From assembly GCF_051201565.1 (NCBI RefSeq), contig NZ_CP179200.1, forward strand, positions 60,001 to 92,000: 32,000 nt of DNA. Reading direction: 5' to 3'. Shown here piece after piece: positions 8,702 to 32,000 of the stretch. A model generated the notes under the pieces. The model worked only from the letters and a program-made list of their open reading frames with translations, had not been told where the DNA came from and did no database searches. The stretch comes from Pseudothioglobus sp. nBUS_23 (lineage in GTDB: Bacteria > Pseudomonadota > Gammaproteobacteria > PS1 > Pseudothioglobaceae). Numbering within the stretch: the first letter of the stretch is position 1; every line of letters begins with the position of its first letter. The position numbers and the translations under genes were made by a program.

Positions 8702-8778
8702 GGTTATGTAGCTCAGCTGGTTAGAGCACAGCATTCATAATGCTGGGGTCGGTGGTTCAAGTCCACCCATAACCACCA
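8702..8778 (+). tRNA. tRNA-Met (anticodon CAU), elongator type, with encoded CCA
   Basis: GGTTATGTAGCTCAGCTGGTTAGAGCACAGCATTCATAATGCTGGGGTCGGTGGTTCAAGTCCACCCATAACCACCA. It folds as a cloverleaf: a 7-bp acceptor stem GGTTATG/CATAACC, anticodon stem CAGCA/TGCTG and loop TTCATAA. It closely resembles E. coli metT-type tRNA. A lysidine-modified tRNA-Ile2 cannot be excluded from sequence alone. Confidence 0.85.
8733..8778 (+). repeat. attL core: the 3' 46 nt of the tRNA, repeated perfectly at 18604-18649
   Basis: attcataatgctggggtcggtggttcaagtccacccataaccacca is identical base for base at both positions. Confidence 0.85.
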
Positions 8779-15797: not shown

Positions 15798-15849
15798 AAA
15801 GTAAAGGTAAAGGTTAAAGCAAAAGTAAAAGTAAAAGTAAAAGATAAAG
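15798..15849 (+). repeat. A-rich hexamer microsatellite, (GTAAAA)n-like
   Basis: aaagtaaaggtaaaggttaaagcaaaagtaaaagtaaaagtaaaagataaag. Confidence 0.85.
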
Positions 15850-15914
15850 TTTAGTAAATACCATAAAGAAATATTTGGTGTTTTATCTTGTTGTAATCTT
15901 GGTGTTTTCGGAGT

Positions 15915-16005
15915 CCATAAAAAGGGAGTTTAGTGACACCATAAAAAGGGGTTTTCGTACGCCATAAAAAAGGGAGTTTTCGGAGACCATAAAAAAAGGC
16001 CTATG
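15915..16005 (+). repeat. Four iteron-like direct repeats CCATAAAAA(A)GGG(A)GTTT spaced 23-25 bp (candidate replication origin)
   Basis: Repeat starts are at 15915, 15939, 15962 and 15987. They lie between the primase and the int operon and next to the A-rich tract. Confidence 0.55.
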
Positions 16006-17205
16006 TCATGGATATTTAAGGTGTCTCCTGTCCGTATTATTGTAGCCTTCTAACAAGTAGGTAACGACTTCTTCAATCACAGCATCTTGTCTCGTTGTCC
16101 TGTAATCTTTTGGATGTCCTTTGTAGTCAACATGGATGTAATGTTCAAGGTTAGCCCATTTGATTTGGTTACTCGATTCCTCTGTGTGGTATTCAGTAGG
16201 AATTGTGTTGACATGAAGCATTCTTACTAAATGACTATATGCTCCAGTTTCTTTAAGCCAAATCCATTTACCTTCAAGGTCACCATTGATACAATCTTTT
16301 TCAATAAGTTGGTCATATAACATCTTGGAAAACTCAGCCTTAAAGGGTGCCTCTTCAACATCTCTCAAGGCAGTATTTTCTTTAATATATCCTAAGCCTT
16401 TTGCCCACCCAATAAACTGCTCCTTGTCTATGTCGATAGGTACAACAATGTGATTATGAAGTTCGTTTTCCGACATATTAGAACGCTCTTGACGGCTGAG
16501 TTGTCTTTTTTTGGTTTTGAACTCTCTTTCAACCCACTTCCATTCATCATAGTCTCTACCACTTTCGCCTAGCCCACCTTTTTCTATGAACCCATCTTCA
16601 TCTTTAAAATTAGTGGCATTCATATCCCATTGCGCAATATATCTTTTTTCAATATCAGGACAGAGACCTAGAAGAATATAAAAACCTTCATGTTGATATA
16701 GGGTTTGATGTCTATCAAGAAGACTTAAATCAAAAGAGGCCTCTTTGAAAACTTTTAATAATCTTTCAGAAGTGCTCGTTCTCCTATCCATCCTTTGCCA
16801 GTTATCGATGTTGTAAATGTCTTCGATATATAAGGCTCGTTTATCTTTCTTTGGATTGATAAAGTGAGGGTTCTTTTTCTTGTGCTCAAAATCCCTCAAT
16901 CTTTCAGCAAGGGATGTAAATGAAGGCATATCATCATTCTCAAATTCTCTTGGGTCTTTGATTATTAAATCTTCTTTGACCCAACCATGGCTAATATAAA
17001 CAACTTCCCATGATTCTTGAGTTAAGTCCTTATGGGGTTCTAACTCAGTATCTAATTCAAGCAACTGCTCAAATAGAGGAACTTCATCGACACATATTTT
17101 ATGAAGTCTTTTTCTCTCTTTACGAGAGGCTTTGACCTGTGCCTCAAACTCCTTAATGAGTTCTTGTTTTCTGTCCTTTGCTTTTTGGGTGAACTGATAC
17201 TTCAT
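16006..17205 (-). CDS. 399-aa protein of unknown function, translationally coupled to the integrase
   Basis: The start is moved to MKYQFTQKAKDRK, whose ATG overlaps the integrase TGA (ATGA). I recognise no motif. It has a charged N-terminal helix and is Trp/His-rich. Confidence 0.6.
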   Translation of the reverse strand: MKYQFTQKAKDRKQELIKEFEAQVKASRKERKRLHKICVDEVPLFEQLLELDTELEPHKDLTQESWEVVYISHGWVKEDLIIKDPREFENDDMPSFTSLAERLRDFEHKKKNPHFINPKKDKRALYIEDIYNIDNWQRMDRRTSTSERLLKVFKEASFDLSLLDRHQTLYQHEGFYILLGLCPDIEKRYIAQWDMNATNFKDEDGFIEKGGLGESGRDYDEWKWVEREFKTKKRQLSRQERSNMSENELHNHIVVPIDIDKEQFIGWAKGLGYIKENTALRDVEEAPFKAEFSKMLYDQLIEKDCINGDLEGKWIWLKETGAYSHLVRMLHVNTIPTEYHTEESSNQIKWANLEHYIHVDYKGHPKDYRTTRQDAVIEEVVTYLLEGYNNTDRRHLKYP

Positions 17206-18440
17206 TTGATGTGACTCCATAGTTCTGCCTCGATCAAATTCATAGGTTCCCTGAGGTCTTCTAATTGAATGATTATGTAGCGCCCTGTAATGTCTTTTGG
17301 GTCTTTGTGATTGATGAGTTTCTTTAGGTTGTATGTTGAGAAAACAACTCTACTTGCTGTAGTTTCAAAAGTCCTTCTAAGGTCGTGTAAGTTGAAATAA
17401 CAACCCGCTAAATCTCTTGCTCTAGCCATTTGTCTTTTTTGTGGCGGTGACAAATGAGTGTTTGGTTTCTGACCTTGGAATACATATGGATTGTCAGAGC
17501 CATCTTTACGCCTATCGAGTATCTCTAATAAAGTTTTAGTCAATGGAAGGGCGTGTGTTTCGTGGTTCTTGGTATCTTCAATAACAAAAGAATTGTCTCT
17601 AAAGTCTATGTCTTCCCACTTGAGTTCTAATGCTTCATTTCTTCTTAATCCTGTAAACAAAATAAAGATAAACAAGTCTCTAACAACCTCGGCACTATTC
17701 TTCTTAACTGAGTTCTTCTCATGCTCAGGTAGTGACATAATTCCTTCATACCATTGCTTTAATTCGTAGTTATTAACTAGGCCTTGTCTAACCTTTTCTC
17801 TATTCCAAGACTTGTTATGAGAGATTCTTTGAACAGGATTGTGAATAAAGAGGGGTTCTCCTTTGCTATCTTCATATTGACCATGAGCATAATTAAACAA
17901 AGCCCTTAGAACTCTCATTGTAGTGTTTGCTCTTGTTGGTGATTCTTTGAACTTACCAAGTCCATAGGTGATGTCTCTATGTCTTTGCTCCACCATGTTG
18001 CGTGTAATATCTGCTATCGGTTTATGTTTCCAATCACCTAGATATATATTTAGAGCAGACCTATAGTTTTCAACTGTACTTTCCTCTATCTTAGTTCCTC
18101 GGCTTCTAATGTAATCATTGAAGACTTGTTGAAGGGTAATGCTTTGCTTAGAAACTAAATCACCTTTAACTTTATTTGGGTCAATGCCTTTATCGATATT
18201 AGAGAATGTTCCCTGTGCTTGTGTCCTAGCCTGTGGAATTGTCATTGAAGGATAGTAGCCTAGAGTGACATAAGAAGCGTTTTTCTTTCCCTTTAGTCTT
18301 TTGCGAACTATAAAAGCCTTAACCCCTAGATGGGTGACTCTTAACGATAAGCCTTTAACTTGTGTGTCACCGTAAGCAACTTGCCCATTGCTAGGTATTT
18401 CAATGTTGTCTAGTGCTTTGCGTGTAAAGTTAATCTTCAT
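17202..18440 (-). CDS. int: Tyrosine site-specific integrase, P4-type (N-terminal DUF4102 arm-binding domain)
   Basis: The start is moved to MKINFTRKALDNIEIPSNGQVAYGDTQVKGLSLRVTHLGVKAFIVRKR, the DUF4102 pattern. The C-terminal catalytic region has TGLRRNEALELKWEDID, HALPL and HDLRRTF. It is adjacent to the partial tRNA copy. Confidence 0.92.
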   Translation of the reverse strand: MKINFTRKALDNIEIPSNGQVAYGDTQVKGLSLRVTHLGVKAFIVRKRLKGKKNASYVTLGYYPSMTIPQARTQAQGTFSNIDKGIDPNKVKGDLVSKQSITLQQVFNDYIRSRGTKIEESTVENYRSALNIYLGDWKHKPIADITRNMVEQRHRDITYGLGKFKESPTRANTTMRVLRALFNYAHGQYEDSKGEPLFIHNPVQRISHNKSWNREKVRQGLVNNYELKQWYEGIMSLPEHEKNSVKKNSAEVVRDLFIFILFTGLRRNEALELKWEDIDFRDNSFVIEDTKNHETHALPLTKTLLEILDRRKDGSDNPYVFQGQKPNTHLSPPQKRQMARARDLAGCYFNLHDLRRTFETTASRVVFSTYNLKKLINHKDPKDITGRYIIIQLEDLREPMNLIEAELWSHIK

Positions 18441-18450
18441 GATACTAACT

Positions 18451-18471
18451 CCAGTACACATCCAGTACACA
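18451..18471 (+). promoter_or_regulatory. Tandem CCAGTACACA / TCCAGTACACA repeat 11-31 nt upstream of the int start (candidate arm-type / autoregulatory site)
   Basis: It matches 8825-8845 in the opposite arm. Two further direct repeats GGATGTNTATGGA lie at 18502-18514 and 18546-18558. Confidence 0.4.
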
Positions 18472-18603
18472 GATGTGGGTTATATTGAGTTATACTAAAA
18501 TGGATGTCTATGGAAGTGTTCATCTCTTTAAACCTATGTATAATAGGATGTTTATGGACATACCAGTATTATATAGGAAATAAAGGATAATAAAGTAAAT
18601 TAA

Positions 18604-18649
18604 ATTCATAATGCTGGGGTCGGTGGTTCAAGTCCACCCATAACCACCA
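18604..18649 (+). repeat. attR core: displaced copy of the tRNA-Met 3' half
   Basis: 46/46 identity with 8733-8778. There is no 5' half of a tRNA upstream. Confidence 0.85.
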
Positions 18650-18861
18650 TATCCCATAAGGCTTTAAGCGATTTCACTTAAATCTAAATATTAGACTGGT
18701 ACTCAACTGGTACTCAAAGAAACGATTTTCGATACCTTTTCTACACCTCGCTTAAGTCCAAATAATTAGATAAATAATAATAGTTAAATAACTAGAGACT
18801 AGTAACCGTTGGTTTGAGGTGTATATAACCGATGGTTTAGATAAATACTATGAAAAAAGTA

Positions 18862-18984
18862 CCATCCCTCGCATATATATACTGACTTTGAAGGTACGGG
18901 GGGAGCCCCTCTCGACATCGGAGATAGATATATACACCCTCCCTCACACATCAAACGAAATTTGGACTCTTTTTGAGCTATAAT
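18862..18984 (+). repeat. Intergenic cassette copy 3, ending in TATAAT (18979-18984), upstream of gene A
   Basis: It is part of the 234-bp block 18735-18968, which is near-identical to 8864-9098. Confidence 0.9.
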
Positions 18985-19017
18985 TTAGCCTTTCTAAATT
19001 TCTATTCACACCCCCTA

Positions 19018-20922
19018 ATGAAGAAAATTTTATTTATTTTTGTGCTGTCTTTGTATTCAATTCAAGGATTTGCATCATCATGCCCTGATGGCAGTGAGCC
19101 AATCAAGAGTGTTTCTGATGATGGAAGTTATTATGTTTTTAACTGTGTAAATAATAACGTTCTCTCAGGCAAACCCTACACGAATTTATCTGAAAACGAT
19201 GGTCCTTGGTCAGGTCCTATGATTGAGATAACGGAGAATACATTAATTAATGGTCCAACTCCAGGCAGGTATTCACCATTTTTGAAAGATACTGGTCGTC
19301 AACGAGGTGGACCCCAACATTGGACTGGAGATTTCAATAATGATGGCTACGTTGATTTCATTTATGGTGGAGCCGTTGATGATGCGAAATATAATTTAAT
19401 ATACTCAAACAGAAAAGGAATCAACAATGCTACAGACATCGATGATAATGACCCAGTAGGGCAATTCTATTCGTGTGGCAAGAAGGCTTGTATTACTCCA
19501 AATATGATGCCTGAATTGTTTCTTGGGCATGCTGATGGAATTTGGAAAAGAAGTTCTTATCTTCTTATCGATAAGCGCAAAGATGCAGGCATACGTGGTG
19601 GCAAGCCCGCTGTTGCTGACTTTAATGGTGACGGTATCCAAGACTTCTGGTTTTATGATGATAAAGCAGACGAGAGCGGCCACGCATCTTCTAACAAAGT
19701 TCGTTGGAGAGGCTTTCGTGACAGTTACTACTTGTCTCAATCTAATGGTACCTGGTTAGAAAGTTCTGATACACATCTAAACAAAGTCATTAATGATTTT
19801 GGCCATGGCGGTCAAGCAGGGGATATCAATGGTGACGGTTGGATAGATATGTTATCTACAACAGGTGGTAAACATGTCGATTGTTGGATAAATATTGGCG
19901 GCGGTGTAATGAAATACCGCAAATGTATCGATGGTGCGGGGGCATATATTGTTGAACTTGCTGATTTCGACGGCGATGGTGATTTAGACATGTACACTCA
20001 GCAACAAGAAAACGCAAGTCAACCTGGACACCCAAAGATATCCTGTAACGATGGTAATGGTTGGTTCCGTGTATGTAAAGATATGTCAGTATTCACTGAT
20101 GGAGATTACGATTGGGTTGGCTCAGTCGGTGCACGTTCATGGGACTTTGACAATGATGGTGACCAAGATATCATACTTATGCGTTTTAGAAACTTGTATG
20201 TTGGGGTTGCAATGGAGATTAAAGAAAATCTCGGTAATATGAACTTCAAGTCAGATTTGACTATTCTTTGGGACCCTATGACAAAAGAAGAGCATGCTGA
20301 GTTAAAAACTGAGATTAATTGGGCAAATAAGTACTTTACATTGAAACTACATGATGTAAATGATGATGGCTTAATGGATGTTATATTTTATGATGGCAAA
20401 TCTGGCAAGTATGACAATGCAATCTGGTTAAACAAAGGAAATCTCAAGTTTGAACTGATTAACAAGAACCAGCCAGACAATCCTATGGTACAGATCAAAA
20501 CTCAACAGACAAACTATAAAGAAACTGCAGGTGAAGAAATAAAACAATTAATTGAAAATTATAATGGTGAAGTGGTTAGAGTTGGTGAAGTGGCTAATGA
20601 AGAACAACCAAAAGAATTATCTTTTCTTGAATCACAAATCAAATTATTAACCGACCAAAGAAGATTACAGGTCTGTAGCGCCGTCTTTAGTGAGTTGTTT
20701 GGAGGTGAATACTACAAAAGAACAAATAAGGACACTTACTTTTTTGTCTCTCTTGATAGTAATGGTAAGGATTGTCATTATGAGTGGTCTACTAATGAGA
20801 TGACAGCATTCGAACAATGCGAAGAGAATACAAAGGCTATTGGAAAATGTACTATCTATGCCATTGGCGATACTGCTGTTTGGGGGAATCCCAAACTGTA
20901 TGAAAATTTAAGAAGTCAATAA
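19018..20922 (+). CDS. Secreted FG-GAP/VCBS-type beta-propeller protein with N-terminal Cys-loop tag and C-terminal four-Cys module (array gene A)
   Basis: The start is moved to MKKILFIFVLSLYSIQGFASSCPDGSEPIKSVSDDGSYYVFNC. Repeated Ca-binding-like blades: DFNNDGYVDF, DFNGDGIQDF, DINGDGWIDM, DFDGDGDLDM, DFDNDGDQDI, DVNDDGLMDV. The shared C-terminal module is at about 20632-20919. Confidence 0.75.
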   Translation: MKKILFIFVLSLYSIQGFASSCPDGSEPIKSVSDDGSYYVFNCVNNNVLSGKPYTNLSENDGPWSGPMIEITENTLINGPTPGRYSPFLKDTGRQRGGPQHWTGDFNNDGYVDFIYGGAVDDAKYNLIYSNRKGINNATDIDDNDPVGQFYSCGKKACITPNMMPELFLGHADGIWKRSSYLLIDKRKDAGIRGGKPAVADFNGDGIQDFWFYDDKADESGHASSNKVRWRGFRDSYYLSQSNGTWLESSDTHLNKVINDFGHGGQAGDINGDGWIDMLSTTGGKHVDCWINIGGGVMKYRKCIDGAGAYIVELADFDGDGDLDMYTQQQENASQPGHPKISCNDGNGWFRVCKDMSVFTDGDYDWVGSVGARSWDFDNDGDQDIILMRFRNLYVGVAMEIKENLGNMNFKSDLTILWDPMTKEEHAELKTEINWANKYFTLKLHDVNDDGLMDVIFYDGKSGKYDNAIWLNKGNLKFELINKNQPDNPMVQIKTQQTNYKETAGEEIKQLIENYNGEVVRVGEVANEEQPKELSFLESQIKLLTDQRRLQVCSAVFSELFGGEYYKRTNKDTYFFVSLDSNGKDCHYEWSTNEMTAFEQCEENTKAIGKCTIYAIGDTAVWGNPKLYENLRSQ

Positions 20923-20924: not shown

Positions 20925-21046
20925 ATTCCTTCGCATATATATACTGACTTTGAGGCACGGGGGGAGCCCCTCTCGACATCGGAGATAGATATATACACCC
21001 TCACTCACACATCAAACGAAATTTGGACTTTAGTCCAAGTTGACAT
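20925..21046 (+). repeat. Intergenic cassette copy 4 (TTGGACTTTAGTCCAA-GTTGACA subtype)
   Basis: attccttcgcatatatatactgactttgaggcacGGGGGGagcccctctcgacatcggagatagatatatacaccctcactcacacatcaaacgaaatttggactttagtccaagttgaca. Confidence 0.9.
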
Positions 21047-21112
21047 ATATCTAATTATTTAAATTTAGCTATGGTATTCTAAATCTAATCCCATTTAAAC
21101 CTTAATACTTCT

Positions 21113-22948
21113 ATGAAGAACCTACTTCTGATTTTAGTTTTATCACTTTTCTCAATTCAGAGTTTTGCGGGCTCGTGTCCTGATGGCAGTGAACCAGTCA
21201 AGAGTATTTCTGCGGATGGCACTTATTTTGTTTTCAATTGTGGCGATGGAAATGATAATGCTAATAAAAAAACAGCTAATCAAATTAATGAAAATATAAT
21301 TTCACCAATATCGCAAGGCACTTATACCCACAACAACAAGTATCACTCTGAACCTCCATTTTATTTTGCTTATGCTAAATTACTTGATACAAGAATGCGA
21401 ATAGCAAAAATTCAAGGAAAAGGTGAGGCTTTTCAAATAAGTAAACTTGATGGAATTCCTGAATTAAATGAATTGTTTAAAAAGAACAAAGTTTCAGAGT
21501 TTCCAAATAAAAAAAGGTGGACCGCAGAGCTTTATGGGGATTTTATGGCAATTGATGAAAAGGTAAAGTGGATTGCTCAAATAAATCCATCAGCTTTGGT
21601 TGAAGATTTCATCAGTATAGATTTAGATAATGATGGCGATAAAGATTGGCTTGTTTTCTTGTTTGGTTTCACACAAGCCATAAAAGATTCTTCAAGTGGG
21701 ATTTATAAAAACTGTGGCAGAGAGGGCTGTGTAAGTGGAGACGTGGTATTCCCAGTTGTTGCTTTTCTGACTGATGAAAATGGCAAGGCTCAAGGACCAA
21801 AAGATGCGGGTCAATTTTTTGTAAGTGGAAACGCTCCATATGTAAAAAATGCTCGCATGATACGTATTGCCGATTTTAATGGTGACAGTATTGATGATTT
21901 TGTTATTGCAGATGGTGGTTGGGATAACCGCGGTTATAGCTATAGACCGTCTTATCAAAGTCATCTATTTATGAGCACAGGCGACAAATTTAAGCATGTC
22001 GAATTTGGCATATTAGATAAAGCCCATGGAATAACTGCTGGTGATATAGATAATGACGGTGACCAGGACTTTATCATTTCCTATGTCGATAGGTCAGTCA
22101 TTCATATTAATGATGGAAAAGGTAATTTTAAAAATCAAGGCATGATTCAGATGGGATATCACACAAATTATCTTGAGCTTATAGACTTTGACTCCGATGG
22201 TTATCTAGATTTATTTATTGGGACAAATGGTTGTAAAAATGCTTCAAGTGTTCTCAGAAATAATGGAAGAGGCTCATTCTCACCATGGGATCAAATTAAA
22301 ATTCCTATAAAAGCTAGTAAGTCATCACAGGATTGTCAGTCTCGTACATGGAGTGGTGACTTTGGGATGGTTCATCATATTGTTGAGTATGATGATAAAT
22401 TTCTACTACTTACAAGTAATAACCATGTGGGCTGGGGCTTTACAACGCTTCAAAAGAATGGCAAGAATGTGAAAATAATGAATTCAGGCAAGTTTAAAAA
22501 AGAAAATGTTTCCGATGGAACTTTTCCTTATAAGTTGATGGTAAATAAAGACCAGGTTGTTATTTTTGATTTTAATTTCCATCCTTATTATTTTGAATTT
22601 AATCATGAGACTGGAGAACTTATTCAGCAGCTAAAAGAATCATCTTTTCATAAATCACAAATCGAATTATTAACTAATCAAAAAAAATTACAAGTCTGTG
22701 ATGCGGTCTTTAGTGAGTTTTTTGGAGGTGAATACAACAAAAGAACAAACAAAGATACTTACTTTTTTGTCTCTCTTGATAGTAATGGTAAGGATTGTCA
22801 TTATGAATGGTCTACCAATGAGATGACAGCATTCCAACAATGCGAAGAGAATACAAAGTCTAATGGAAAATGCACTATCTATGCCATTGGCGATACTTCT
22901 GTTTGGGGAAATCCCAATCTTTATAAGGAATTAACTGGAACAAAATAA
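21113..22948 (+). CDS. Secreted FG-GAP-repeat protein with the same N-tag and C-terminal four-Cys module (array gene B)
   Basis: MKNLLLILVLSLFSIQSFAGSCPDGSEPVKSISADGTYFVFNC. Blades: DLDNDGDKDW, DFNGDSIDDF, DIDNDGDQDF, DFDSDGYLDL. The C-terminal ~95 aa are near-identical to gene A, even at nucleotide level. Confidence 0.75.
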   Translation: MKNLLLILVLSLFSIQSFAGSCPDGSEPVKSISADGTYFVFNCGDGNDNANKKTANQINENIISPISQGTYTHNNKYHSEPPFYFAYAKLLDTRMRIAKIQGKGEAFQISKLDGIPELNELFKKNKVSEFPNKKRWTAELYGDFMAIDEKVKWIAQINPSALVEDFISIDLDNDGDKDWLVFLFGFTQAIKDSSSGIYKNCGREGCVSGDVVFPVVAFLTDENGKAQGPKDAGQFFVSGNAPYVKNARMIRIADFNGDSIDDFVIADGGWDNRGYSYRPSYQSHLFMSTGDKFKHVEFGILDKAHGITAGDIDNDGDQDFIISYVDRSVIHINDGKGNFKNQGMIQMGYHTNYLELIDFDSDGYLDLFIGTNGCKNASSVLRNNGRGSFSPWDQIKIPIKASKSSQDCQSRTWSGDFGMVHHIVEYDDKFLLLTSNNHVGWGFTTLQKNGKNVKIMNSGKFKKENVSDGTFPYKLMVNKDQVVIFDFNFHPYYFEFNHETGELIQQLKESSFHKSQIELLTNQKKLQVCDAVFSEFFGGEYNKRTNKDTYFFVSLDSNGKDCHYEWSTNEMTAFQQCEENTKSNGKCTIYAIGDTSVWGNPNLYKELTGTK

Positions 22949-22951: not shown

Positions 22952-23075
22952 CCATCCTTGGCATATTTATTTAGACTTTGAAGGTACGGGGGGAGCCCCT
23001 CTTGACATCGTGGATAGATATATACACCTTCCCTCACACATCAAACGAAATTTGGATTTCTATTTGAACTATAAT
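22952..23075 (+). repeat. Intergenic cassette copy 5, ending in TATAAT (23070-23075) 6 nt before the gene C ATG
   Basis: ccatccttggcatatttatttagactttgaaggtacGGGGGGagcccctcttgacatcgtggatagatatatacaccttccctcacacatcaaacgaaatttggatttctatttgaacTATAAT. Confidence 0.9.
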
Positions 23076-23081
23076 TCAATT

Positions 23082-25169
23082 ATGAAAAAACTATTCCTAC
23101 TTTTAATTCTATCCTTTTTCTCAGCTCAAAGTTATGCTGGGTCGTGCCCAGATGGCAGTGAGCCAGTCAAGAGTATTTCTGCGGATGGTACTTACTTTGT
23201 ATTTAACTGCGGCGGTGCTAATGAAGCACCTTCTTCTAATGCTAATTCATCTAATACCAAGTCAAACTCGAATCAAGCCTATCAATCTTTTCCAGTGCAT
23301 GAATTTGCAAAATCCCCACTTCGTGATTTGAAGGTTCCTGAAAACTGGAAACTATTCAAAGACCCCAGTGAGTTAGATCTTTTTCATGAGCGATTCAAAG
23401 GCCCAGTTCATGAAAATCAACCTATTAATTCGTGGAAGATGCAAAATTATGTGGATGATTGTGAACGCGGTATTTCTGAATTTGATCAAAACTTTCGTTT
23501 GCTTGAAGAGAATTTGGCCAGAAGTTTTATAAGATGCGCAAGAGTATTCACTCTTCGTCATTTTCGAGATCGAGCTGAAGGTATAAAGACCTTTGAAAGA
23601 ATACTTCTGTCCTGGGCAAAAACAAAGCCCGTCATCTATGCAGCAAACTCAAATGATGAAAATATATTTGGTAGTCAGGCGTATGCAGCGTCTATGCTTA
23701 TGGGAGATTTTGCATCTTTTTACGCTGTTTATTATGATGATTTTGATTTCACTCAAGAGCAGCGCCAATCTGTAGAGGAATACTTAAGTGATTGGCTAAT
23801 CAATCATGATCTTACCCTTCCTGGATTCCCAATCTGTAACCTCAAGGATATAAAGCAATTCGAAGTTGGTGGTGCCAATACAACTAGAGCTGCAAACTAT
23901 TGCGGAAGTAACCGCTGGCGTATGGGAATAGGTGCTGTCTATCTCGGTCTTAGAACGGGTAACCAAGAGCTATTTACAGCAGGTAATAGGCATATTGAAA
24001 TAAATTTAGCTACAATTGATAAAGATGGTATTAATGCAGTTTGGGCTGGAAAAGGAGTCTTGGCTCTGAGCTATTTAAGACAATTTCCAGAGGTCCTAAC
24101 GCTGCTTGCAGTGGCCTACGAATCGATCGGCTATGACTTTTATGAACACCAATTGCCTCGTGGAAAAAAAATTCATGAGGTCTATGAGGCATTATTTGAT
24201 TTTATTTATCATCCTGAGAAACTGAATAAGTATGCACATGGAACTCGTTACTATGGAGGCAAGGGAAATCCAGGGGTTATTGACGTCTATGAATTCGATA
24301 AACTTCCATTAAGTGAAAAATGGAACCGTGAAATGATTTCCCCAGAAATACTAGCAGCCGAGTCCAAGGGTTATGTTATTCGATATCGTCCTGATTTAAT
24401 GGACAAGATTGAATACAAAAAAACATGGGGGTATAACCCCAATAAGCAAGCAGAATGGAAATGGGGTGAGTATGAGCACTGGCAGGAACATGTTTCAAGA
24501 TTTGTTAATATTTCAGGTTTAGCAATTTATGAGGCGTTTAATCAAAATGTTTCAAAGTTAATCATCGAGGAACAAAAAAAATTAGAACAAGATCAAGAAA
24601 AAAACAGGCTTCGATTAAAGAACAATGCTGAATCATTAAAGGTTAAAAAGTCTCAAGAGCAAGAACAGCTTTTAGCAGAAATTCCAATTTATGATATGAA
24701 TGATGAGACTCTAATTTTAAATCTTGACCTAGCTGAATTTGTCGAAATAAGTCCGCCAAAAAAACAAAACAAAAATTCTGGATTGGAGACACACAAAGCA
24801 GAAATAAGTTGCGAGTTAAGTATGGGCAGTTTTCAAGTTCCTGAGTTTAGGCCATTGGCTTTTAAATATGTTTTATATAATGAGAATAGATTATCAATCA
24901 ATGTCGGTGATTTGAATGCGCCTGAGTTTAACCCGTTCAAAAGACATCGAGCCTCTCTTCAAAAGGAATGTGGCCTTGAGTTAATGAATGAATATGACTG
25001 GATGAGTTTTGTCAGCGAAACGACCAATATGAAGAGTGCTAAAAACCAACAATGTCATTATGATTATTTCAAGGATGCAAATGACGAAGAGGCTTGGAAG
25101 TTGTTTCAGGCTGTCTTAGGTGGGACGGCTTCTATACTGAATTATCTAGAAGAAAATGTTGAGCGATGA
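23082..25169 (+). CDS. Secreted protein: N-tag + Ser/Asn-rich linker + all-alpha AlgL/alginate-lyase-like core + coiled coil + C-terminal module 2 (array gene C)
   Basis: The start is moved to MKKLFLLLILSFFSAQSYAGSCPDGSEPVKSISADGTYFVFNC. The core motifs (YCGSNRWRMGIGAVYLGL...DKDGINAVWAGKGVLALSYLRQFPEVL) are spaced as in the PL5-type NNHSYW...R..RAL.YHNYALP. The catalytic-site equivalents are not all conserved. Confidence 0.6.
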   Translation: MKKLFLLLILSFFSAQSYAGSCPDGSEPVKSISADGTYFVFNCGGANEAPSSNANSSNTKSNSNQAYQSFPVHEFAKSPLRDLKVPENWKLFKDPSELDLFHERFKGPVHENQPINSWKMQNYVDDCERGISEFDQNFRLLEENLARSFIRCARVFTLRHFRDRAEGIKTFERILLSWAKTKPVIYAANSNDENIFGSQAYAASMLMGDFASFYAVYYDDFDFTQEQRQSVEEYLSDWLINHDLTLPGFPICNLKDIKQFEVGGANTTRAANYCGSNRWRMGIGAVYLGLRTGNQELFTAGNRHIEINLATIDKDGINAVWAGKGVLALSYLRQFPEVLTLLAVAYESIGYDFYEHQLPRGKKIHEVYEALFDFIYHPEKLNKYAHGTRYYGGKGNPGVIDVYEFDKLPLSEKWNREMISPEILAAESKGYVIRYRPDLMDKIEYKKTWGYNPNKQAEWKWGEYEHWQEHVSRFVNISGLAIYEAFNQNVSKLIIEEQKKLEQDQEKNRLRLKNNAESLKVKKSQEQEQLLAEIPIYDMNDETLILNLDLAEFVEISPPKKQNKNSGLETHKAEISCELSMGSFQVPEFRPLAFKYVLYNENRLSINVGDLNAPEFNPFKRHRASLQKECGLELMNEYDWMSFVSETTNMKSAKNQQCHYDYFKDANDEEAWKLFQAVLGGTASILNYLEENVER

Positions 25170-25289: not shown

Positions 25290-27236
25290 ATGAAAAAAAT
25301 ATTATTTATTTTTGTGCTGTCTTTGTATTCAATTCAAGGATTTGCTTCAAATACTTATGACTCTTTTCCAGTTCATGAGTTTGCAAAATCTCCACTTCGT
25401 GATTTAAAAGTAACTGAAAACTGGGAACTATTCAAAGACCCCAGTGAGTTAGATCTTCTTCATGAGAGATTCAAAGGTCCAGTTCACGAAAAATACTCTA
25501 TTGGGTGGTGGAATATGCACCCTTATGTAGATGATTGTGAACGAGCAATTTCTGAATGGGATAAAAGCTGGCTTTCTCATAAAGGTCAGGGGCTTTCAAA
25601 TGGAATTCAATCAAGCTTTATCAGGTGTGCTACTTTTTTTACGCACCAGCATTTCCGTAATCGTGATGAGGGGATTAAGGTATTTGAGAGAATCCTTTTG
25701 TCTTGGGCTAAAAATGAGCCAGTTGCTTATCCTACTTCTAATAATTTAAAGATGTGGGAACACGGCGCTTTAGGATATGCTTCTACCATGCTTGTTGGTG
25801 ATTTTGCATCGTTCTATGCTGTCTATTATGATGATTTTGATTTTACGCAAGATCAGCGTCAAGCAGTTGAGAGCTATCTGAGTGATTGGCTCATAAACCA
25901 TGATATTGATCCACCTAGAATGTATCAAAGATGTGACCTTGAAGATCTGACAAAGTTTGAATTTATAGGGAATAATTTTATGTCTATAGATTACTGCGGC
26001 AGTAATAGGTGGCGTTTAGCTCTAGGGGCAGTCTACCTTGGACTAAAGACTGGCAATCAAAAACTTTTTACTGCCGGAAATCGCCACCTTGAAATAGCCT
26101 TAGCAGTAATTGATAAAGATGGCATTTACGCCCCTTGGGCTAGAAAAGGCGCACTGGCTCTGAGTTATCAAAGGCAGTTACCAGAAGTATTAACCCTACT
26201 AGCAGTTGCATATGAATCTATTGGCTATGATTTTTATGAACATCAACTTCCTCATGGGAAAAAAATTCATGAGGTCTATGACGCTTTCTTTGATTTCATT
26301 TATCATCCTGAAAAGCTCAATAAATATGCTTTTGGAATCCCAGACTATGGGGATTTAGATGTTCACGAATTTGATAAGTTGCCACTTGAAGAAAAGTGGC
26401 ATCGTGAGTATATTAACCCTAAAGTATTGGCGGCGCAATCAAAAGGGTATGTCCTAAGGTATCGTCCTGATTTAATGAGTATGATCGACTACTCTAAAAA
26501 ATGGGGCAAGTTTTGGGACAATTATATATCGGTTTTTGTTAATATCAGTGGTGTAGCAGTATATGAGGCATTTAATCAAAATGTTAGTAATTTTCTCCAA
26601 GAACAGGATGAAAAACTGAAAGAGAAACAAGAAGAAAATAGGCTTCGATTAAAGAAAAATGCGGAAGCAATAAAGGCTAAAAAAGATCAAGAGCAAGAAC
26701 AACTAGAGACTAAAAAAGCTCAAGAGCAAGAACAACTTTTAGCAGAAATTCCAATTTATGACATGAATGATGAAGCCCTAATTTTAAACCTTGACCAAGC
26801 TGAATTTTTCGAAATAAGTCCGCCTAACCAACAAAATAAAAATGTTGGGTGGGAGACACACAAGGCAGAAATTTATGGTGAATTGAGACTTGAGAATTTT
26901 CACATTCCTAAATTTAGACCGCTGGCTTTTAAATTCGATGTCCTTAATGAGAGTAGATTGTCAATTAATGTAGGTGAACTCAATGCGCCTGAATTTAGAC
27001 CTTTTACAAGACATCAGGCTTCCCTTCAAAAGGAGTGTGGACTGGGACTAATGAACGAATATGATTGGATGAGTTTTGTCAGCGAAACGACCAATATGAA
27101 GAGTGCTAAAAACCAACAATGTCATTATGATTATTTCAAAGAAGCAAATGATGAAGAAGCTTGGAAATTATTCCAGGCTGTCCTAGGTGGTACGGATTCT
27201 ACACTGAATTATCTAGAAGAAAATGTTGAGCGATGA
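25290..27236 (+). CDS. Paralogue of gene C lacking the Cys-loop tag (array gene D)
   Basis: MKKILFIFVLSLYSIQGFASNTYDSFPVHEFAKSPLRDLKV. It is collinear with gene C from SFPVHEF onward. The leader nucleotides are nearly identical to those of gene A. Confidence 0.6.
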   Translation: MKKILFIFVLSLYSIQGFASNTYDSFPVHEFAKSPLRDLKVTENWELFKDPSELDLLHERFKGPVHEKYSIGWWNMHPYVDDCERAISEWDKSWLSHKGQGLSNGIQSSFIRCATFFTHQHFRNRDEGIKVFERILLSWAKNEPVAYPTSNNLKMWEHGALGYASTMLVGDFASFYAVYYDDFDFTQDQRQAVESYLSDWLINHDIDPPRMYQRCDLEDLTKFEFIGNNFMSIDYCGSNRWRLALGAVYLGLKTGNQKLFTAGNRHLEIALAVIDKDGIYAPWARKGALALSYQRQLPEVLTLLAVAYESIGYDFYEHQLPHGKKIHEVYDAFFDFIYHPEKLNKYAFGIPDYGDLDVHEFDKLPLEEKWHREYINPKVLAAQSKGYVLRYRPDLMSMIDYSKKWGKFWDNYISVFVNISGVAVYEAFNQNVSNFLQEQDEKLKEKQEENRLRLKKNAEAIKAKKDQEQEQLETKKAQEQEQLLAEIPIYDMNDEALILNLDQAEFFEISPPNQQNKNVGWETHKAEIYGELRLENFHIPKFRPLAFKFDVLNESRLSINVGELNAPEFRPFTRHQASLQKECGLGLMNEYDWMSFVSETTNMKSAKNQQCHYDYFKEANDEEAWKLFQAVLGGTDSTLNYLEENVER

Positions 27237-27388: not shown

Positions 27389-28789
27389 ATGAAGAACCTA
27401 CTTCTGATTTTAGTTTTTTCACTTTTATCAATACAGAGTTTTGCTGGCGGATGTCCAGATGGAAGTGAGCCAGTTAAGAGTATTTCTGCTGACGGTACTT
27501 ACTTTGTATACAACTGTAGCGCGGGTAATGAAAAAGCGTCCTCATCAACTGCTAAAAGCCTTAAGTTTGAGCTAGATACAACAAATGGCAAGCTTGAGGA
27601 CTATTCTTATATAACTGACCCAACAGGAAAGTTTAACAAAGTTCATAAATTTACTACCGGAAGTGAATGTGGGTCAAAAACAAGAGATATTGATTGGGAT
27701 AATATGGTAGGTGAAATGGAAACCAGTGACTGTGGAGAAAATTCAGTAAGGTCGCAAATGGTTGAACAAGTGTGGGAAGATAATCGACCAGGAGATATTC
27801 AGCCAAATCAGCAGTGGTATAGCTGGGATGTATACTTACCAAATGATTTTCCTATACAAGATAGTGGTAAATTATTGCTTGGAGAGTTTCATAATAGTGA
27901 ATGTCCACATATAGCATTTACAAGTCAAGGAGGAGAAGACAATGGAGTTTTACATTTCACAACACAGAAACTATGGGATGGAGATTGTGCAGATTATGGT
28001 GAGGATACATCTAAGATACCAATAACACAAATCCAAGACATGCGAGGCAAGTGGACAAATTTTCATTTAGAAATGAAGTGGGAGAATAATGAAACTGGCT
28101 TGGCAAATCTTTGGCTAAATGGTAAACAAGTCTTAGCCTATAAAGGCAGAACTTTAACATTGCAAAAAGAAAATCTAAATTTTATGCTTTTCGGTCTTTA
28201 CCAATGCTGTAATGATAGAGATAAAGTTATAAAACCAGCTATGGCTTACTTCACAACTCCAAAGACCTCAATGAATCCAATTACACCTGTAGAGGTTACT
28301 CTTGATAATACAAAAACTTCAAGCTCTTTTAAAGTGAAGTCTAAGGCTGTAAAACCTCTCGAGCCTATTAAAAAAGTTGGTGAGGCAGCTAATAACTTCG
28401 ATGGGTCTTATGCACTCATAATAAGAACTGAACCGACAGATGGACAAAAAAATATTGGCACCGCACAATTTATAATTAAAGATGGGAAGATTAGTATTGC
28501 TAGAAAATACCGATATCTCAGTACGAGTGCAATCAGTAGTTATGATACTTTTGAAGGCGTAATTGATAAAGAAGGAAACATAAAAGCTTCAATTGAGCTC
28601 AATCCAATAATGGATATGGTAGAGCCTAAGACTATTAAGTTCTCGGGAAGTATGGACTCACTTCAGTTGAGAGGAAAGTTTGAGGATATTAAGTCTTGGG
28701 ATAACAATACTAAAGAGTATGTCCTTGATGAAAATTTTTATCCATCTTTTTTTGATGTGATTATCGACTTCAAAAAAGAAAATTATTAA
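27389..28789 (+). CDS. Secreted protein: N-tag + concanavalin-type jelly-roll polysaccharide-lyase-like domain (PL7 / PF14099-like) + unknown C-terminal domain (array gene E)
   Basis: The start is moved to MKNLLLILVFSLLSIQSFAGGCPDGSEPVKSISADGTYFVYNC. VRSQMVE, LLLGEFHNS, WTNFHLEMKW...LWLNGKQV and FMLFGLYQ recall the RSELRE / QIH / YFKAGxYxQ blocks of jelly-roll lyases. Confidence 0.55.
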   Translation: MKNLLLILVFSLLSIQSFAGGCPDGSEPVKSISADGTYFVYNCSAGNEKASSSTAKSLKFELDTTNGKLEDYSYITDPTGKFNKVHKFTTGSECGSKTRDIDWDNMVGEMETSDCGENSVRSQMVEQVWEDNRPGDIQPNQQWYSWDVYLPNDFPIQDSGKLLLGEFHNSECPHIAFTSQGGEDNGVLHFTTQKLWDGDCADYGEDTSKIPITQIQDMRGKWTNFHLEMKWENNETGLANLWLNGKQVLAYKGRTLTLQKENLNFMLFGLYQCCNDRDKVIKPAMAYFTTPKTSMNPITPVEVTLDNTKTSSSFKVKSKAVKPLEPIKKVGEAANNFDGSYALIIRTEPTDGQKNIGTAQFIIKDGKISIARKYRYLSTSAISSYDTFEGVIDKEGNIKASIELNPIMDMVEPKTIKFSGSMDSLQLRGKFEDIKSWDNNTKEYVLDENFYPSFFDVIIDFKKENY

Positions 28790-28826: not shown

Positions 28827-30650
28827 ATGCGAAAGCTTCTAATACCGCTACTTTTAATTCTATCCTTTTTCTCAGCTCAAGGTTTTGCGGGGTCTTGTCC
28901 TGATGGTAGTGAACCAGCCAAGAGTATTTCTGCTGATGGCACTTATTTTGTATACAACTGTGGTGGTTCAAACACGGCAAACAGCAGTACTTCCTCACAA
29001 AAAGTAGCCAAGGCACTTGCTGGTATTAATATTGAAAATGACCCAAATTTAGATTTTTTCAGTTTGCCATTAGGTCTATACCCAACAAATAAAACGTTGC
29101 ATGGATCTGAGGGAAGAATTGCTGATTTTAATAATGATGGTTTATCCGATGTTATTTATATAGGAATGATGGATATGAATGCTTCTCCCTCATGTACTTA
29201 TTCAGATTGCAGTTATAGTCAAATAGATGATAATGATAAACCGCTACCGGCACTTTATTTGGGTAATGCTGATGGTAAATTACACTACTCGCCTGAGCTT
29301 TTTATAGATAATCGATCCAATAAAGGAATGTCGCTTGGAAGAAGACTTCTAATCGCGGACTTCAATAATGATAAATTGTTAGATATTTATATCAATGATA
29401 CTTCAGTTAGTGGGCCAGAAAAATGGGGGTATCGAGATAGCTATTTTTTAAGTCAGCCTAACGGAACTTGGCTTGAATCTAGTAAAACACATCTAAGTCA
29501 GCCTAACTTTAGGGTTTATGATCATGGCGGAGCAACGGGCGATATTGATAATGATGGAGATATGGATATTGTGATAACTGAATTGCATCCTCAATTCAAT
29601 AATGGGTTTTACTGTCTGATGAATAATGGAAGTGGGTTTTTGAAAATGCGCAAATGTGGCGGCACAAGTTCTGCGTCATCTGTTGAGCTATCTGATATCG
29701 ATAATGATGGCGACTTGGATGCAATAGTTGGTGGCATGAATAGAAACCAGTTTACAGGCATTGTTTGGAATGATGGTTCAGGAAATTTTCTATCTTATAT
29801 GGCGAGCCCTCTTAATGATCACAATGATGTATTTCATGGAATTCCTGATGTTACAGCTTCAGATTTAGATAATGATGGAGATATGGATATTGTGTTTAGT
29901 AAAGTGGGAACACAAATCTTCAACTCCAAGGCAGACTATAAAGGCTCTGCAATTCAATTTATAGAAAACTTAGGTAGTAAAAAGTTTAGAGAGTATGATC
30001 CAATCCCAATAGTTAAAGATTCAAGAATTGGTTGGATTAAGAATATTCTATTTAGAGATTTAGATAATGATGGGGACATAGATTTATATCTAAACTCCAT
30101 GGATCAAAGCACTAATGGTTCAGTTTTTGTAAATAATGGCGACTTTAACTTTTCATTAATAATGCCACCTGAGGCATACAAGTTATATGGGTCGCTAGCG
30201 CAAAATGGCATAATTGAGTCTCTCGTAGATAGAGAAGAAAAAGTAAGTCAGCTTGCTGAACTTAAAAAGAAACAAGAAGAGGAAAAAGCTAAAAGGCTTG
30301 CCAAGGATAGGGAAAATAAAAAAAATAATTTTAAATATTCGTCACGAAACTTTAAATCTCAGTTAAAACTATTACAGACTCAAGGTAATTTAGCGGTTTG
30401 TAAAGCTATTTTAAAAGAGTTCCATGCTGGTGATTACTACAGCCAAACTAATAAAGAAACTTATTTATTTATCTCCATTGATAGTAATGGCTTGGATTGT
30501 CATTATGAATGGTCTAGAAATGAAAACAATGCCCTTAGACGATGTAAGCAAAATAATAAAACAGATGGTAAATGCACAATCTATGCCCTAGGTGATAACA
30601 TTGTTTGGGGTGATCCTGAGCTTTATAAGGAATTAACTGGAAGAAAATAG
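28827..30650 (+). CDS. Secreted FG-GAP/VCBS beta-propeller protein with N-tag and C-terminal four-Cys module (array gene F)
   Basis: MRKLLIPLLLILSFFSAQGFAGSCPDGSEPAKSISADGTYFVYNC. Six blades of the type DFNNDGLSDV ... DLDNDGDIDL. It lies only 37 nt after gene E with no cassette between, so the two are probably co-transcribed. Confidence 0.75.
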   Translation: MRKLLIPLLLILSFFSAQGFAGSCPDGSEPAKSISADGTYFVYNCGGSNTANSSTSSQKVAKALAGINIENDPNLDFFSLPLGLYPTNKTLHGSEGRIADFNNDGLSDVIYIGMMDMNASPSCTYSDCSYSQIDDNDKPLPALYLGNADGKLHYSPELFIDNRSNKGMSLGRRLLIADFNNDKLLDIYINDTSVSGPEKWGYRDSYFLSQPNGTWLESSKTHLSQPNFRVYDHGGATGDIDNDGDMDIVITELHPQFNNGFYCLMNNGSGFLKMRKCGGTSSASSVELSDIDNDGDLDAIVGGMNRNQFTGIVWNDGSGNFLSYMASPLNDHNDVFHGIPDVTASDLDNDGDMDIVFSKVGTQIFNSKADYKGSAIQFIENLGSKKFREYDPIPIVKDSRIGWIKNILFRDLDNDGDIDLYLNSMDQSTNGSVFVNNGDFNFSLIMPPEAYKLYGSLAQNGIIESLVDREEKVSQLAELKKKQEEEKAKRLAKDRENKKNNFKYSSRNFKSQLKLLQTQGNLAVCKAILKEFHAGDYYSQTNKETYLFISIDSNGLDCHYEWSRNENNALRRCKQNNKTDGKCTIYALGDNIVWGDPELYKELTGRK

Positions 30651-30805: not shown

Positions 30806-32000
30806 ATGAAAAAAATATTATTTATATTTGTTTTGTCTTTGTACTCTATTCAAGGATTGGCCTCATCATGTCCTGATGGAAGCGAACCAGTTAAAAGTAT
30901 CTCTGATGATGGCACTTATTTTGTTTTCAATTGCCCTGATCAAGTATCTCCTGATACTGATACTAATAAAGGTCTTATTAAATCTAATGACATTAGCTTT
31001 CCAGGTAAATTTTATACAACAGAAATTAGCGCCTGTAATGCCTTAGTCCCCGTATCTTTTAGCTTGAATTCTTCTATTAATCTTGTTAAAGGTTTAGTTG
31101 GCTATGATTGGCATGCTGATTGGGAGGCAAACAGTAATTCCATGAATGTTTATCATCAAAAAATTACAGAACCAATGAATATGCTAATGGCAGCAACGCA
31201 TAACGCATTGGGAAACGATTATCAAGCTAATATTAGCATAGCTAAAAACTTGTTAATAGAACTGGCTAAAACAGATACCTTGTATGACAGTATTGGCTAT
31301 ATTGAAGTCAGAAAGAAACCTGGTTGCTATGCCGGTGGTGATATAAATGCACCCTGCTGGTACCATGAATATCAATTCGCCAGTAACGTATTTTCAAATT
31401 ACATGATTACTGCATTATGGTTGCGAGATGAACTCAACGAGCAGGAGTTTGAGATTGTAGATAAGTACATCAAAAAGATGTACAAAAAGTTTCTACAGCC
31501 AATAGAACTTCAGGAAGAGGAGCAGGGTTTTTATGCCATGGCTAATGGTGGCACATCAATTCTTGCATACGCATCTTGGACAAATGATAAAGAGCTTGCT
31601 GCAGAAGAAATAAATCACAGGTTTAAAGAAATGGATAGGCTATTCTATGATGATGGCTACATAAACAACAATTCATTCAGAGGATATAGAGGTCAATGGT
31701 ACCACTCTTATGGATTAGATATTGCACTTGGTTACGTCTATATTGCGGAATTATGGGGCGCAGAGATTCCAGACAAACTTCAAAACAAATTAGTTAAAGC
31801 ATCAGAAGTTGTAAACCTAGCTATAACTGATTGGGACAAGTTTAAAAGCAGAAAGTATGACGGCAATCAAAGTAATGCTATTAATGACCCAAATAATGCC
31901 ATAAAGCACACTCACCAAGTCGCAATTGCAATAGACACACTAATGAAAATTGTCACTGGTGTAGAACTCGAGTACGACCCTGTGTACCTTCAAAAAAGAA
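30806..32000 (+). CDS. Secreted AlgL/PL5-like alginate-lyase-family protein with N-tag (array gene G; 3' end outside the window)
   Basis: Not in the ORF track because no stop occurs in the window. My own translation from ATG 30806 is open to the edge: MKKILFIFVLSLYSIQGLASSCPDGSEPVKSISDDGTYFVFNC...YINNNSFRGYRGQWYHSYGLDIALGY. The last block matches the N..K/R..R....YHNYAL block of AlgL-type lyases in sequence and in spacing. Confidence 0.6.
   Translation, partial: MKKILFIFVLSLYSIQGLASSCPDGSEPVKSISDDGTYFVFNCPDQVSPDTDTNKGLIKSNDISFPGKFYTTEISACNALVPVSFSLNSSINLVKGLVGYDWHADWEANSNSMNVYHQKITEPMNMLMAATHNALGNDYQANISIAKNLLIELAKTDTLYDSIGYIEVRKKPGCYAGGDINAPCWYHEYQFASNVFSNYMITALWLRDELNEQEFEIVDKYIKKMYKKFLQPIELQEEEQGFYAMANGGTSILAYASWTNDKELAAEEINHRFKEMDRLFYDDGYINNNSFRGYRGQWYHSYGLDIALGYVYIAELWGAEIPDKLQNKLVKASEVVNLAITDWDKFKSRKYDGNQSNAINDPNNAIKHTHQVAIAIDTLMKIVTGVELEYDPVYLQKR

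Follow-up and report, generated by a model that had tools for sequence, protein, structure and literature searches.

Several bacterial systems are known in which a short or small module directs or holds secreted proteins. The first 22 mature residues of the curli protein CsgA (N22) direct this protein to the CsgG channel of the outer membrane, while dockerins are small modules, carried on flexible linkers by many unrelated and often polysaccharide-degrading enzymes, through which cohesins hold these enzymes at the cell. Lipoprotein tethers, including the Bacteroidota lipoprotein export signal (an acidic motif after the lipidated cysteine), place an N-terminal anchor and a disordered linker ahead of an enzyme. 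The PEP-CTERM/exosortase, GlyGly-CTERM/rhombosortase and LPXTG/sortase systems act on tags that are short, multi-copy, taxon-restricted and present on unrelated secreted domains, a pattern that led to the discovery of these systems. Here, we describe a 22-residue tag, bounded by two cysteines, that directly follows the leader in six of the seven proteins encoded by a gene array of Pseudothioglobus sp. nBUS_23. The array lies in a 32,000-nt stretch (positions 60,001 to 92,000 of contig NZ_CP179200.1), the whole of which is termed the window. SUP05/Arctic96BD-19 bacteria (Thioglobaceae) are among the most abundant gammaproteobacteria of the ocean, and their exported proteins are almost wholly unannotated.

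The tag has partial counterparts in each of these systems. Like N22, it comprises about 22 residues right after a signal peptidase I site, is separable from its cargo and would act after Sec export; unlike N22, which is glycine-rich, unstructured and confined to one family, it is predicted to be a hairpin and occurs on at least 200 distinct clusters at 50% identity. The two share no sequence similarity and no CsgG-like partner is known for the tag; the likeness is positional only. With dockerins the tag shares its attachment through flexible linkers to many unrelated enzymes and, potentially, the logic of holding an enzyme at the cell, but dockerins have ~70 residues with a duplicated calcium-binding segment and are usually C-terminal, whereas the tag has no known cohesin-like partner and its host is a Gram-negative planktonic cell. 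With lipoprotein tethers it shares the order of N-terminal module, disordered linker and enzyme, and with the Bacteroidota signal the acidic residues after a cysteine; a lipobox fills the same slot in homologues of one of the array proteins, the lyase E. The first cysteine of the tag (Cys1), however, lies outside a lipobox and is apparently disulfide-bonded, and the lineage is gammaproteobacterial. The PEP-CTERM, GlyGly-CTERM and LPXTG tags sit at the C-terminus, have a motif followed by a transmembrane helix and a basic tail, and are cut by an enzyme with which they are co-distributed, whereas the tag described here is N-terminal, soluble and, by prediction, folded, has no hydrophobic helix, and no such enzyme was found in the neighbourhoods of its genes. 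A further likeness is to thanatin, a cationic free insect peptide of ~21-22 residues that forms a beta-hairpin with one disulfide and binds LptA/LptD by strand addition; by analogy, hairpins of this kind can bind envelope proteins by beta-augmentation. Thanatin has a short C-terminal disulfide loop, while the tag is acidic, has a putative end-to-end disulfide and is part of a larger protein, and the search with the hairpin model found no fold match. Overall, the tag behaves like a lineage-specific tag and shares no defining sequence or positional feature with dockerin, PEP-CTERM or GlyGly-CTERM.

Results

A 22-residue tag in six of seven array proteins

The array consists of seven genes on the same strand, from 19.0 kb to the end of the window (the most plausible ATG starts were taken):

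Gene A, 19018..20922, + strand: leader 19018-19080, tag 19081-19146; FG-GAP-repeat protein with a four-cysteine C-terminal module
Gene B, 21113..22948, + strand: leader 21113-21175, tag 21176-21241; FG-GAP-repeat protein with a C-terminal module as in A
Gene C, 23082..25169, + strand: leader 23082-23144, tag 23145-23210; Ser/Asn-rich linker and a domain paralogous to that of D, without a Pfam match
Gene D, 25290..27236, + strand: A-type leader (25290-25349) fused straight to a C-type domain; no tag and no linker
Gene E, 27389..28789, + strand: leader 27389-27451, tag 27452-27517; disordered linker, lyase (polysaccharide-lyase beta-jelly-roll, PF14099, with a PL20/PL7-like fold), second linker and C-terminal beta domain
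Gene F, 28827..30650, + strand: leader 28827-28895, tag 28896-28961; FG-GAP-repeat protein with an A/B-type C-terminal module
Gene G, 30806..32000, + strand, continuing past the window end: leader 30806-30868, tag 30869-30934; weak match to the alginate-lyase family

Six of these genes encode a leader of 21-23 residues followed by a loop of 22 codons running from TGY to TGY (Cys-x20-Cys), which starts two residues past the small-x-Ala site of the leader. In gene A, the leader from the ATG at 19018 reads MKKILFIFVLSLYSIQGFASS and is followed by the first tag cysteine. A preliminary description of this DNA had reported the loop as a fixed 22-residue module directly after the signal-peptide cleavage site in six of the seven proteins; this is upheld, and its positions for A and B proved exact on re-reading. 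The consensus of the six copies is CPDGSEP[IVA]KS[IV]S[AD]DG[TS]Y[FY]V[FY]NC, with 15 of the 22 positions invariant. Mean pairwise nucleotide identity between the six copies is 0.83 for the tag, 0.65 for the leader and 0.33 for the 66 nt after the tag; because this last value is at the level of random sequence, the tag is far better conserved than the sequence that follows it, as the same description had stated.

The array proteins are mosaics, with common N- and C-terminal modules and variable cores between them. A C-terminal module of ~100 residues with four cysteines is common to A (20605-20904), B (22628-22927) and F (30330-30629), the copies in A and B being 89% identical in DNA, and another is common to C (24501-24929) and D (26535-26996). 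Neither of these shared C-terminal modules has a Pfam match.

Distribution and cargo

A profile of the leader plus tag matched 198 proteins in a word-indexed database, all of them from metagenome or metagenome-assembled-genome collections, the few named ones being marine. When 1.84 billion cluster representatives (clusters defined at 50% identity) were scanned exhaustively with this profile by HMMER, 260 clusters passed E <= 1e-3 and 206 passed E <= 1e-10; the match was in an N-terminal position in nearly all of the 150 best listed of the 260. Recurrence of leader and tag in 260 of 1.84 billion representatives means that the pattern is not due to chance. Among GTDB contigs, taken as one genome per species, there were 39 genuine tag loci, which are titled Ca. 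Thioglobus, Ca. Pseudothioglobus, SUP05 single-cell genomes or 'uncultured gamma proteobacterium' single amplified genomes (SAGs). A few short tag contigs were binned outside Thioglobaceae; at least three of these oddly binned contigs (L009, L026 and L028) are probably mis-binned, because they carry the Thioglobaceae-type intergenic 24-mer described below, exactly or with up to three mismatches. Six loci from Acidobacteriota and an archaeon (L040-L045) were rejected as chance matches of 16-20 residues (GSCPDGSEPVV inside an unrelated open reading frame [ORF]).

The tag is multi-copy per genome (at least seven tag genes in SAG AG-319-K19 and six within 13 kb in the window), taxon-restricted and joined to domains of unrelated kinds. 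In the cargo of 57 long members, 27 Pfam families were recognised: FG-GAP_3 occurs in 10, Polysacc_lyase in 9, Sel1 in 6, Alginate_lyase in 5, SHOCT in 4 and SNase in 2, with single cases of M60, Trypsin_2, GH5, GH113, pectin acetylesterase (PAE), DLH, beta-lactamase and S9. The claim that the tag is family-wide and borne by unrelated domains is thus substantiated by the 260 clusters and these 27 families. The preliminary description had named, as a sign against its proposal, a motif confined to this locus and lacking a conserved partner; confinement is contradicted by the 260 clusters and 39 loci, while no partner was found in the neighbourhoods of tag genes. The tag is also kept where the leader diverges, as in a core-genome family of ~245 aa and in L046-L048 and P0258, in which it is retained 8 residues after a different leader.

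Searches of curated resources gave no counterpart. No Pfam or NCBIfam family covers the tag in full-length proteins, the bare tag matched nothing in Pfam at E <= 1, no match to Dockerin (PF00404) was found, and PDB sequences searched with a profile of the tag gave no match at E <= 10. A literature search found no paper with CPDGSEP, and nothing relevant in Thioglobus and Pseudothioglobus papers.

Some database matches were set aside. P0235, a repeat protein of 1816 aa with 22 weak matches to the tag profile, reaches ~4 bits per repeat and has no cysteines; it was taken to show a generic resemblance to a PDG...DGT.F.F hairpin rather than homology, and its Pfam matches are spurious sums over repeats. 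A viral origin was rejected for three IMG/VR contigs with diverged tag genes, which have nucleotide-sugar, thymidylate-synthase and DegP-like flanks and are probably cellular.

Two longer database proteins, P0244 (residues 298-329) and P0182 (~228-245), hold an internal copy of the leader c-region plus tag (...AQGLAGSCPDGSEP...). These copies may be real recombination junctions at the 5' module or assembly chimeras across a 130-nt repeat. A second recurrent terminal motif was seen in several genes just upstream of the 24-mer in L004, L008, L011, L013, L026, L033 and L046, which end alike in an acidic amphipathic ...EDEIAAFEAELAAELG(Q/E). In L046, the only locus where such a gene was identified as a tag gene, the gene with the acidic tail is itself a ~500-aa FG-GAP tag protein; the window proteins lack this tail.

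Selection on the tag

Conservation of the tag extends over the whole family. In 211 of 246 members, the tag starts (Cys1) at residue 22; C1, D3, G4 and D14 never vary, and conservation reaches 99% at Y17 and C22 and 98-99% at P2, S5, P7, S12 and G15. The leader is also unusually conserved, with S at -8, Q at -6, S or G at -5 (98%), F, Y or L at -4 and Ala at -3 (94%).

Synonymous sites have, by contrast with the peptide, diverged to saturation. For 43 tag copies, pS was 0.55 (dS ~1.0) and pN 0.09 (dN ~0.10), a ratio of 0.10, and for the six copies in the window dS was 1.26 and dN 0.056, a ratio of 0.045. The pS of the tag, at 0.55-0.61, corresponds to saturated synonymous sites, and identity between tag copies is 0.63 at the third codon position versus 0.92 and 0.89 at the first and second; the 66 nt after the tag are unalignable. 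As dS is saturated while dN/dS is 0.05-0.10, the constraint is on the peptide, and these same values rule out recent gene conversion as the source of conservation. The tag copies are old and are held by selection on their amino-acid sequence.

Cleavage site, cysteines and predicted fold

The leaders begin with MKK, have a core rich in L, I and F and end in (S/G)-(F/Y/L)-A, as is expected of Sec signals cut by signal peptidase I. The -3/-1 rule of this peptidase is obeyed two residues before Cys1 in 252 of 264 leaders, in agreement with the earlier reading of the F-A-(G/S)-(S/G)-C context as a signal peptidase I site. In the diverged L046, L047 and P0258, the tag lies 8 residues past the hydrophobic core, behind ...GC(S/T)GVTKA(G/A)G with Lys at -4; such variants with an upstream cysteine fit both signal peptidase I and signal peptidase II readings. 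P0257 has Tyr in place of this upstream cysteine and retains the A|xx-Cys context. Taken together, these features support a Sec/signal-peptidase-I leader and a tag that would form part of the mature exported protein and not a lipid anchor.

Downstream of the tag, the cysteine count is even in 94 of 102 proteins (binomial p ~1e-19, which is overstated as the set includes related sequences). This parity implies that, in an oxidising compartment, Cys1 would pair with Cys22 and the other cysteines among themselves.

AlphaFold2, run with an alignment of 87 mature tags, predicted a beta-hairpin with a mean pLDDT of 80.5, rising to 92 over the central ten-residue block; the predicted strands are V-K-S-I and F-V-(F/Y)-N and the turn is S-x-D-G-T-Y. 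Foldseek with this hairpin model returned nothing below E = 5. In the model of full-length E, the same strands appear at residues 29-32 and 39-42, the linker (residues 44-53) has a pLDDT <50, the lyase domain is mostly at 80-95 and a second disordered linker precedes the C-terminal beta domain. This model matches the PL20 glucuronan lyase and PL7 alginate lyases. Across the family, the tag is followed by a low-complexity stretch (S 21%, N 13%, G 9%, T 7.5%), which is predicted to be a disordered linker of 10-30 residues rich in Ser, Asn, Gly and Thr.

Loss of the tag in gene D

Gene D has a leader that is 95% identical in DNA to that of A, and its protein runs from ...GFAS directly into NTYDSFPVHEF, with no cysteine. 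A tag-bearing orthologue in the databases, P0169, reads ...GYAS[SCPDG...KCSNAS]NTYDSFPVHEF. When the two genes are aligned (that of P0169 being in L054), exactly 81 nt are missing from D, in frame, and the gap is flanked by ATGCTTCA/TGCTTCA direct repeats of 7-8 nt. The alignment shows that D lost the tag and a short linker through a microhomology deletion, so that the earlier suggestion of a precise loss of the loop, and hence of a separable module, gains a concrete basis.

The N-terminal slot of the E lyase

Homologues of the E lyase domain with 48-88% identity were aligned and the occupants of their N-terminal slot compared. A lipobox cysteine with a short Ser/Thr linker was present in 14 and the tag plus linker in 4 (E included), while PG_binding_1 occupied the slot in 2, another small Cys-loop module in 3 and a bare signal peptidase I leader in 4. 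By this comparison, anchoring devices appear to be the usual occupants of the slot. In L051-L053 (the phage-like P0286 contigs), lipobox-type homologues of the E lyase stand beside genes for DNA ligase, ClpP, PTPS and a 2OG-Fe(II) oxygenase, which indicates that lipoprotein-type lyases may be encoded by marine phages.

Genomic context of the array

The other features of the window are a tRNA-linked element upstream of the array and a set of intergenic repeats:

tRNA-Met, 8702..8778, + strand: 3' part inside the 300-nt direct repeats
300-nt direct repeats, 8733-9032 and 18604-18903: 87-96% identical, bracketing the 9.6-kb element 9033-18603
AlpA-like regulator of the element, 13655-13987, - strand
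Primase-like gene of the element, 14428-15741
Tyrosine integrase of the element, 17202-18470, - strand
Intergenic 24-mer CTCACACATCAAACGAAATTTGGA, + strand: eight copies versus 0 expected, at 9073, 11922, 18943 (18943..18966), 21004, 23033, 25213, 27280 and 30734
Long repeat form, a ~110-nt 5' extension of the 24-mer repeat: 8996-9130, 11845-11979, 18866-19000, 20927-21061, 22956-23090 and 30657-30791

The region 9033-18603, which lies shortly before the tag array, resembles an integrative element or satellite of the P4 type. Just downstream of its primase-like gene, at 15919-15995, are three tandem repeats of 23-29 nt (AAAAAGGGAGTTT..ACCATAAAAA), which may be iterons and the replication origin of the element. 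Since the array begins just after the right-hand 300-nt repeat, it lies in a tRNA-linked variable island. The left flank of L049, which represents this chromosomal site in another strain, corresponds gene for gene to window positions 1-8800, from purD to coaE, and its island (9950-15800) carries different tag genes; this difference places the array in a hypervariable island downstream of tRNA-Met. Several tag genes of the L049 island are truncated or frameshifted (fragments of 58, 126 and 173 aa), and many of the short 'stand-alone' tag proteins in the databases are therefore probably fragments.

About 50 copies of the 24-mer occur in loci L001-L055, and exact or nearly exact copies are present between genes in other Thioglobaceae species. 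Its orientation invariably matches that of the gene downstream, and it frequently begins immediately behind the preceding stop codon. The 24-mer stands upstream of tag and non-tag genes alike and is more conserved than the genes that flank it; it probably acts as a common promoter or operator. In two places it is followed by the perfect dyad TTGGAC-TTTA-GTCCAA (21023-21038 and 27299-27314). The long form contains a GC-rich palindrome that varies (GGGGAGCCCC, CCCCTAGGGGG and GGGGGACCCCC in other genomes), the symmetry but not the sequence being kept. Neither the 24-mer nor the long repeat matched Rfam, and folding of the long repeat as RNA gave a possible imperfect stem-loop of ~60 nt whose overall stability was not significant (z = -1.15). 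In at least 20 of 44 tag genes, a -10-like hexamer (TACAAT, TATAAT or TATAGT) stops 6-8 nt short of the ATG and a Shine-Dalgarno sequence is lacking, which suggests that many of these genes for secreted proteins have leaderless mRNAs. A sigma-70 consensus scan of the array was uninformative, with 53 sites versus 46 expected.

Discussion

Our results describe an old, selectively maintained N-terminal module on exported proteins of Thioglobaceae. We tentatively favour, at somewhat less than an even chance, a reading of the tag as a separable module for docking or targeting in the cell envelope, akin to a 'mini-dockerin'. Following Sec export, signal peptidase I would cut after (S/G)-(F/Y/L)-A and leave (G/S/A)(S/G)-Cys1 as the new N-terminus; a Cys1-Cys22 bond would then close the 22-residue beta-hairpin, which would be followed by the flexible linker and any of many unrelated periplasmic or extracellular domains. 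The hairpin could be recognised by a component of the envelope, whether a protein, peptidoglycan or a surface glycan, and hydrolytic or binding domains would be leashed at the envelope of these small planktonic cells rather than diffusing off. Alternatively, the hairpin may guide its cargo across the outer membrane. The module would have spread to new cargo by recombination inside variable islands, and can be lost without destroying the cargo, as in gene D. A docking or tethering role is favoured because anchoring devices usually fill the same N-terminal slot in homologues of the E lyase. It is possible, but rather doubtful, that the tag is the substrate mark of an unrecognised lineage-specific docking or sorting system of SUP05/Arctic96BD-19, in which a dedicated envelope receptor or enzyme reads the hairpin and tethers a variable set of island-encoded exoenzymes to the surface of these very small planktonic cells; with similar reserve, and by analogy, such a system might be regarded as a Gram-negative, N-terminal counterpart of the dockerin-cohesin or PEP-CTERM-type systems.

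Several observations weigh against a docking role. At least some cargo can do without the tag: the ORF of D is intact although it lacks the tag, and P0274 has a plain leader yet is 88% identical to the E lyase domain over the aligned part. The slot comparison draws in part on phage-like contigs (P0286, of the lipobox type), whose biology may differ. When 240 ORFs from 42 sequences (41 loci plus the window, with neighbourhoods of up to 10 kb per side) were clustered, none was a candidate receptor or sorting enzyme near tag genes, and the recurrent neighbours were ordinary chromosomal genes: an ABC transporter, DUF1800/DUF1501, RecJ-like and CoaE. Tagged proteins may stay periplasmic, a route to the surface not being evident. 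The net charge of the tag is negative, which speaks against simple binding to lipopolysaccharide, and a 22-residue hairpin is, to our knowledge, smaller than any characterised docking domain.

The tag might instead be a structural cap that has no partner, with the stapled hairpin shielding the N-terminus and linker from aminopeptidases or acting as a fast-folding stop to back-sliding through Sec. A hairpin that is small, self-contained and, as inferred from cysteine parity, disulfide-closed would suit such a role, as would its constant position ahead of a protease-sensitive Ser/Asn-rich linker, the tolerance of its loss and the lack of a partner in the neighbourhoods examined. A cap does not, however, account for the near-invariance of ~15 of 22 positions over >200 families at saturated dS, and homologues with plain leaders do without any cap. 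We consider this explanation unlikely.

Somewhat less likely again is an outer-membrane translocation signal, in which the first 22 mature residues would guide the protein to a dedicated channel, as N22 does for CsgG, for release or surface exposure. The position of the tag at the extreme mature N-terminus, its separability, the linker behind it and the exoenzyme nature of the cargo (lyases, GH5, GH113, M60, nuclease and proteases) are as such a signal would require. No channel or secretion gene, however, was linked to tag genes in the neighbourhoods examined, secretion systems have been reported to be less common in free-living members, and the predicted folded, disulfide-closed hairpin differs from the unstructured, glycine-rich N22. 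The variants of the L046-L048/P0258 type, in which the upstream cysteine lies in a lipobox-like context (canonical in L047), would moreover fit anchoring rather than release.

It is also conceivable, if improbable, that the tag is a glycan-binding mini-module whose aromatic hairpin (Y17, F18 and Y20) binds polysaccharide and targets the enzymes to the polymer and not to the cell. Cargo acting on polysaccharides is common (PF14099, alginate-lyase, GH5, GH113 and PAE, with E itself PL20/PL7-like), the aromatic residues are conserved, and an arrangement of module, linker and catalytic domain is typical of carbohydrate-binding modules. But known modules of this kind are far larger, the tag matches no Pfam family (E <= 1) and has no structural neighbour, and its strict N-terminal position would be needless for substrate binding. 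Its presence on proteases, a nuclease and Sel1/TPR and SHOCT proteins has no obvious glycan rationale.

The preliminary description had offered a second reading of the cleavage site, in which the proteins are lipoproteins, Cys1 is the +1 residue of a permissive lipobox and P-D-G-S-E (+2 to +6) serves as a sorting or export signal. An old, permissive PROSITE-style pattern is satisfied by 179 of 264 leaders, and S or G stands at -1 in 97%. The strict lipobox [LVI][ASTVI][GAS]C is, however, found in just one of the 264, and Ala at -3 with a small residue at -5 is a signature of signal peptidase I. Conserved members have K, D, E, P, I or Y at -1 (for example SHASKC in two SAGs, SFAGDC, and GYAAPC in a close homologue of E), residues that are not acceptable to signal peptidase II. 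D has the same leader and no cysteine, the tags of L046, L047 and P0258 lie 8 residues beyond the hydrophobic region and follow a Lys at -4, and acylation of Cys1 would leave Cys22 unpaired given the even cysteine count. A genuine lipobox in the window, that of a BON-domain protein (2039-2788), reads ILSSC and differs from the tag context. Leader statistics, cysteine parity, the diverged variants and the cysteine-free leader of D thus rule against the lipobox, and we regard a lipoprotein as highly improbable.

A role at the DNA level only, in which leader and tag form a recently spread or gene-converted 5' cassette that serves as a recombination handle for cargo swaps and encodes a functionless peptide, is scarcely credible: the module does sit behind a conserved intergenic element, recurs internally in P0244 and P0182 and heads mosaic proteins with shared N- and C-terminal modules, but the saturated pS, the low third-position identity and the dN/dS of 0.05-0.10 argue against it, and the internal copies may be assembly chimeras.

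In summary, the sequence handle (S/G)x-A|xx-CPDGS[ED]P...DG[TS]Y...C marks a large, fast-evolving and island-encoded part of the exported proteome of these bacteria, including lyases, glycosidases, proteases, a nuclease and FG-GAP propellers. Even as a mere cap, the tag merits a curated domain model, as the proteins that carry it are now annotated as featureless hypotheticals. The proposal can be tested directly with the cultured representative strain PS1 and with 22-mer peptides, which can be synthesised. If the tag does act in docking or sorting, it would point to an envelope receptor yet to be found, and would reveal how small-genome cells hold on to their costly exoenzymes, a question that has long occupied marine microbial ecology.

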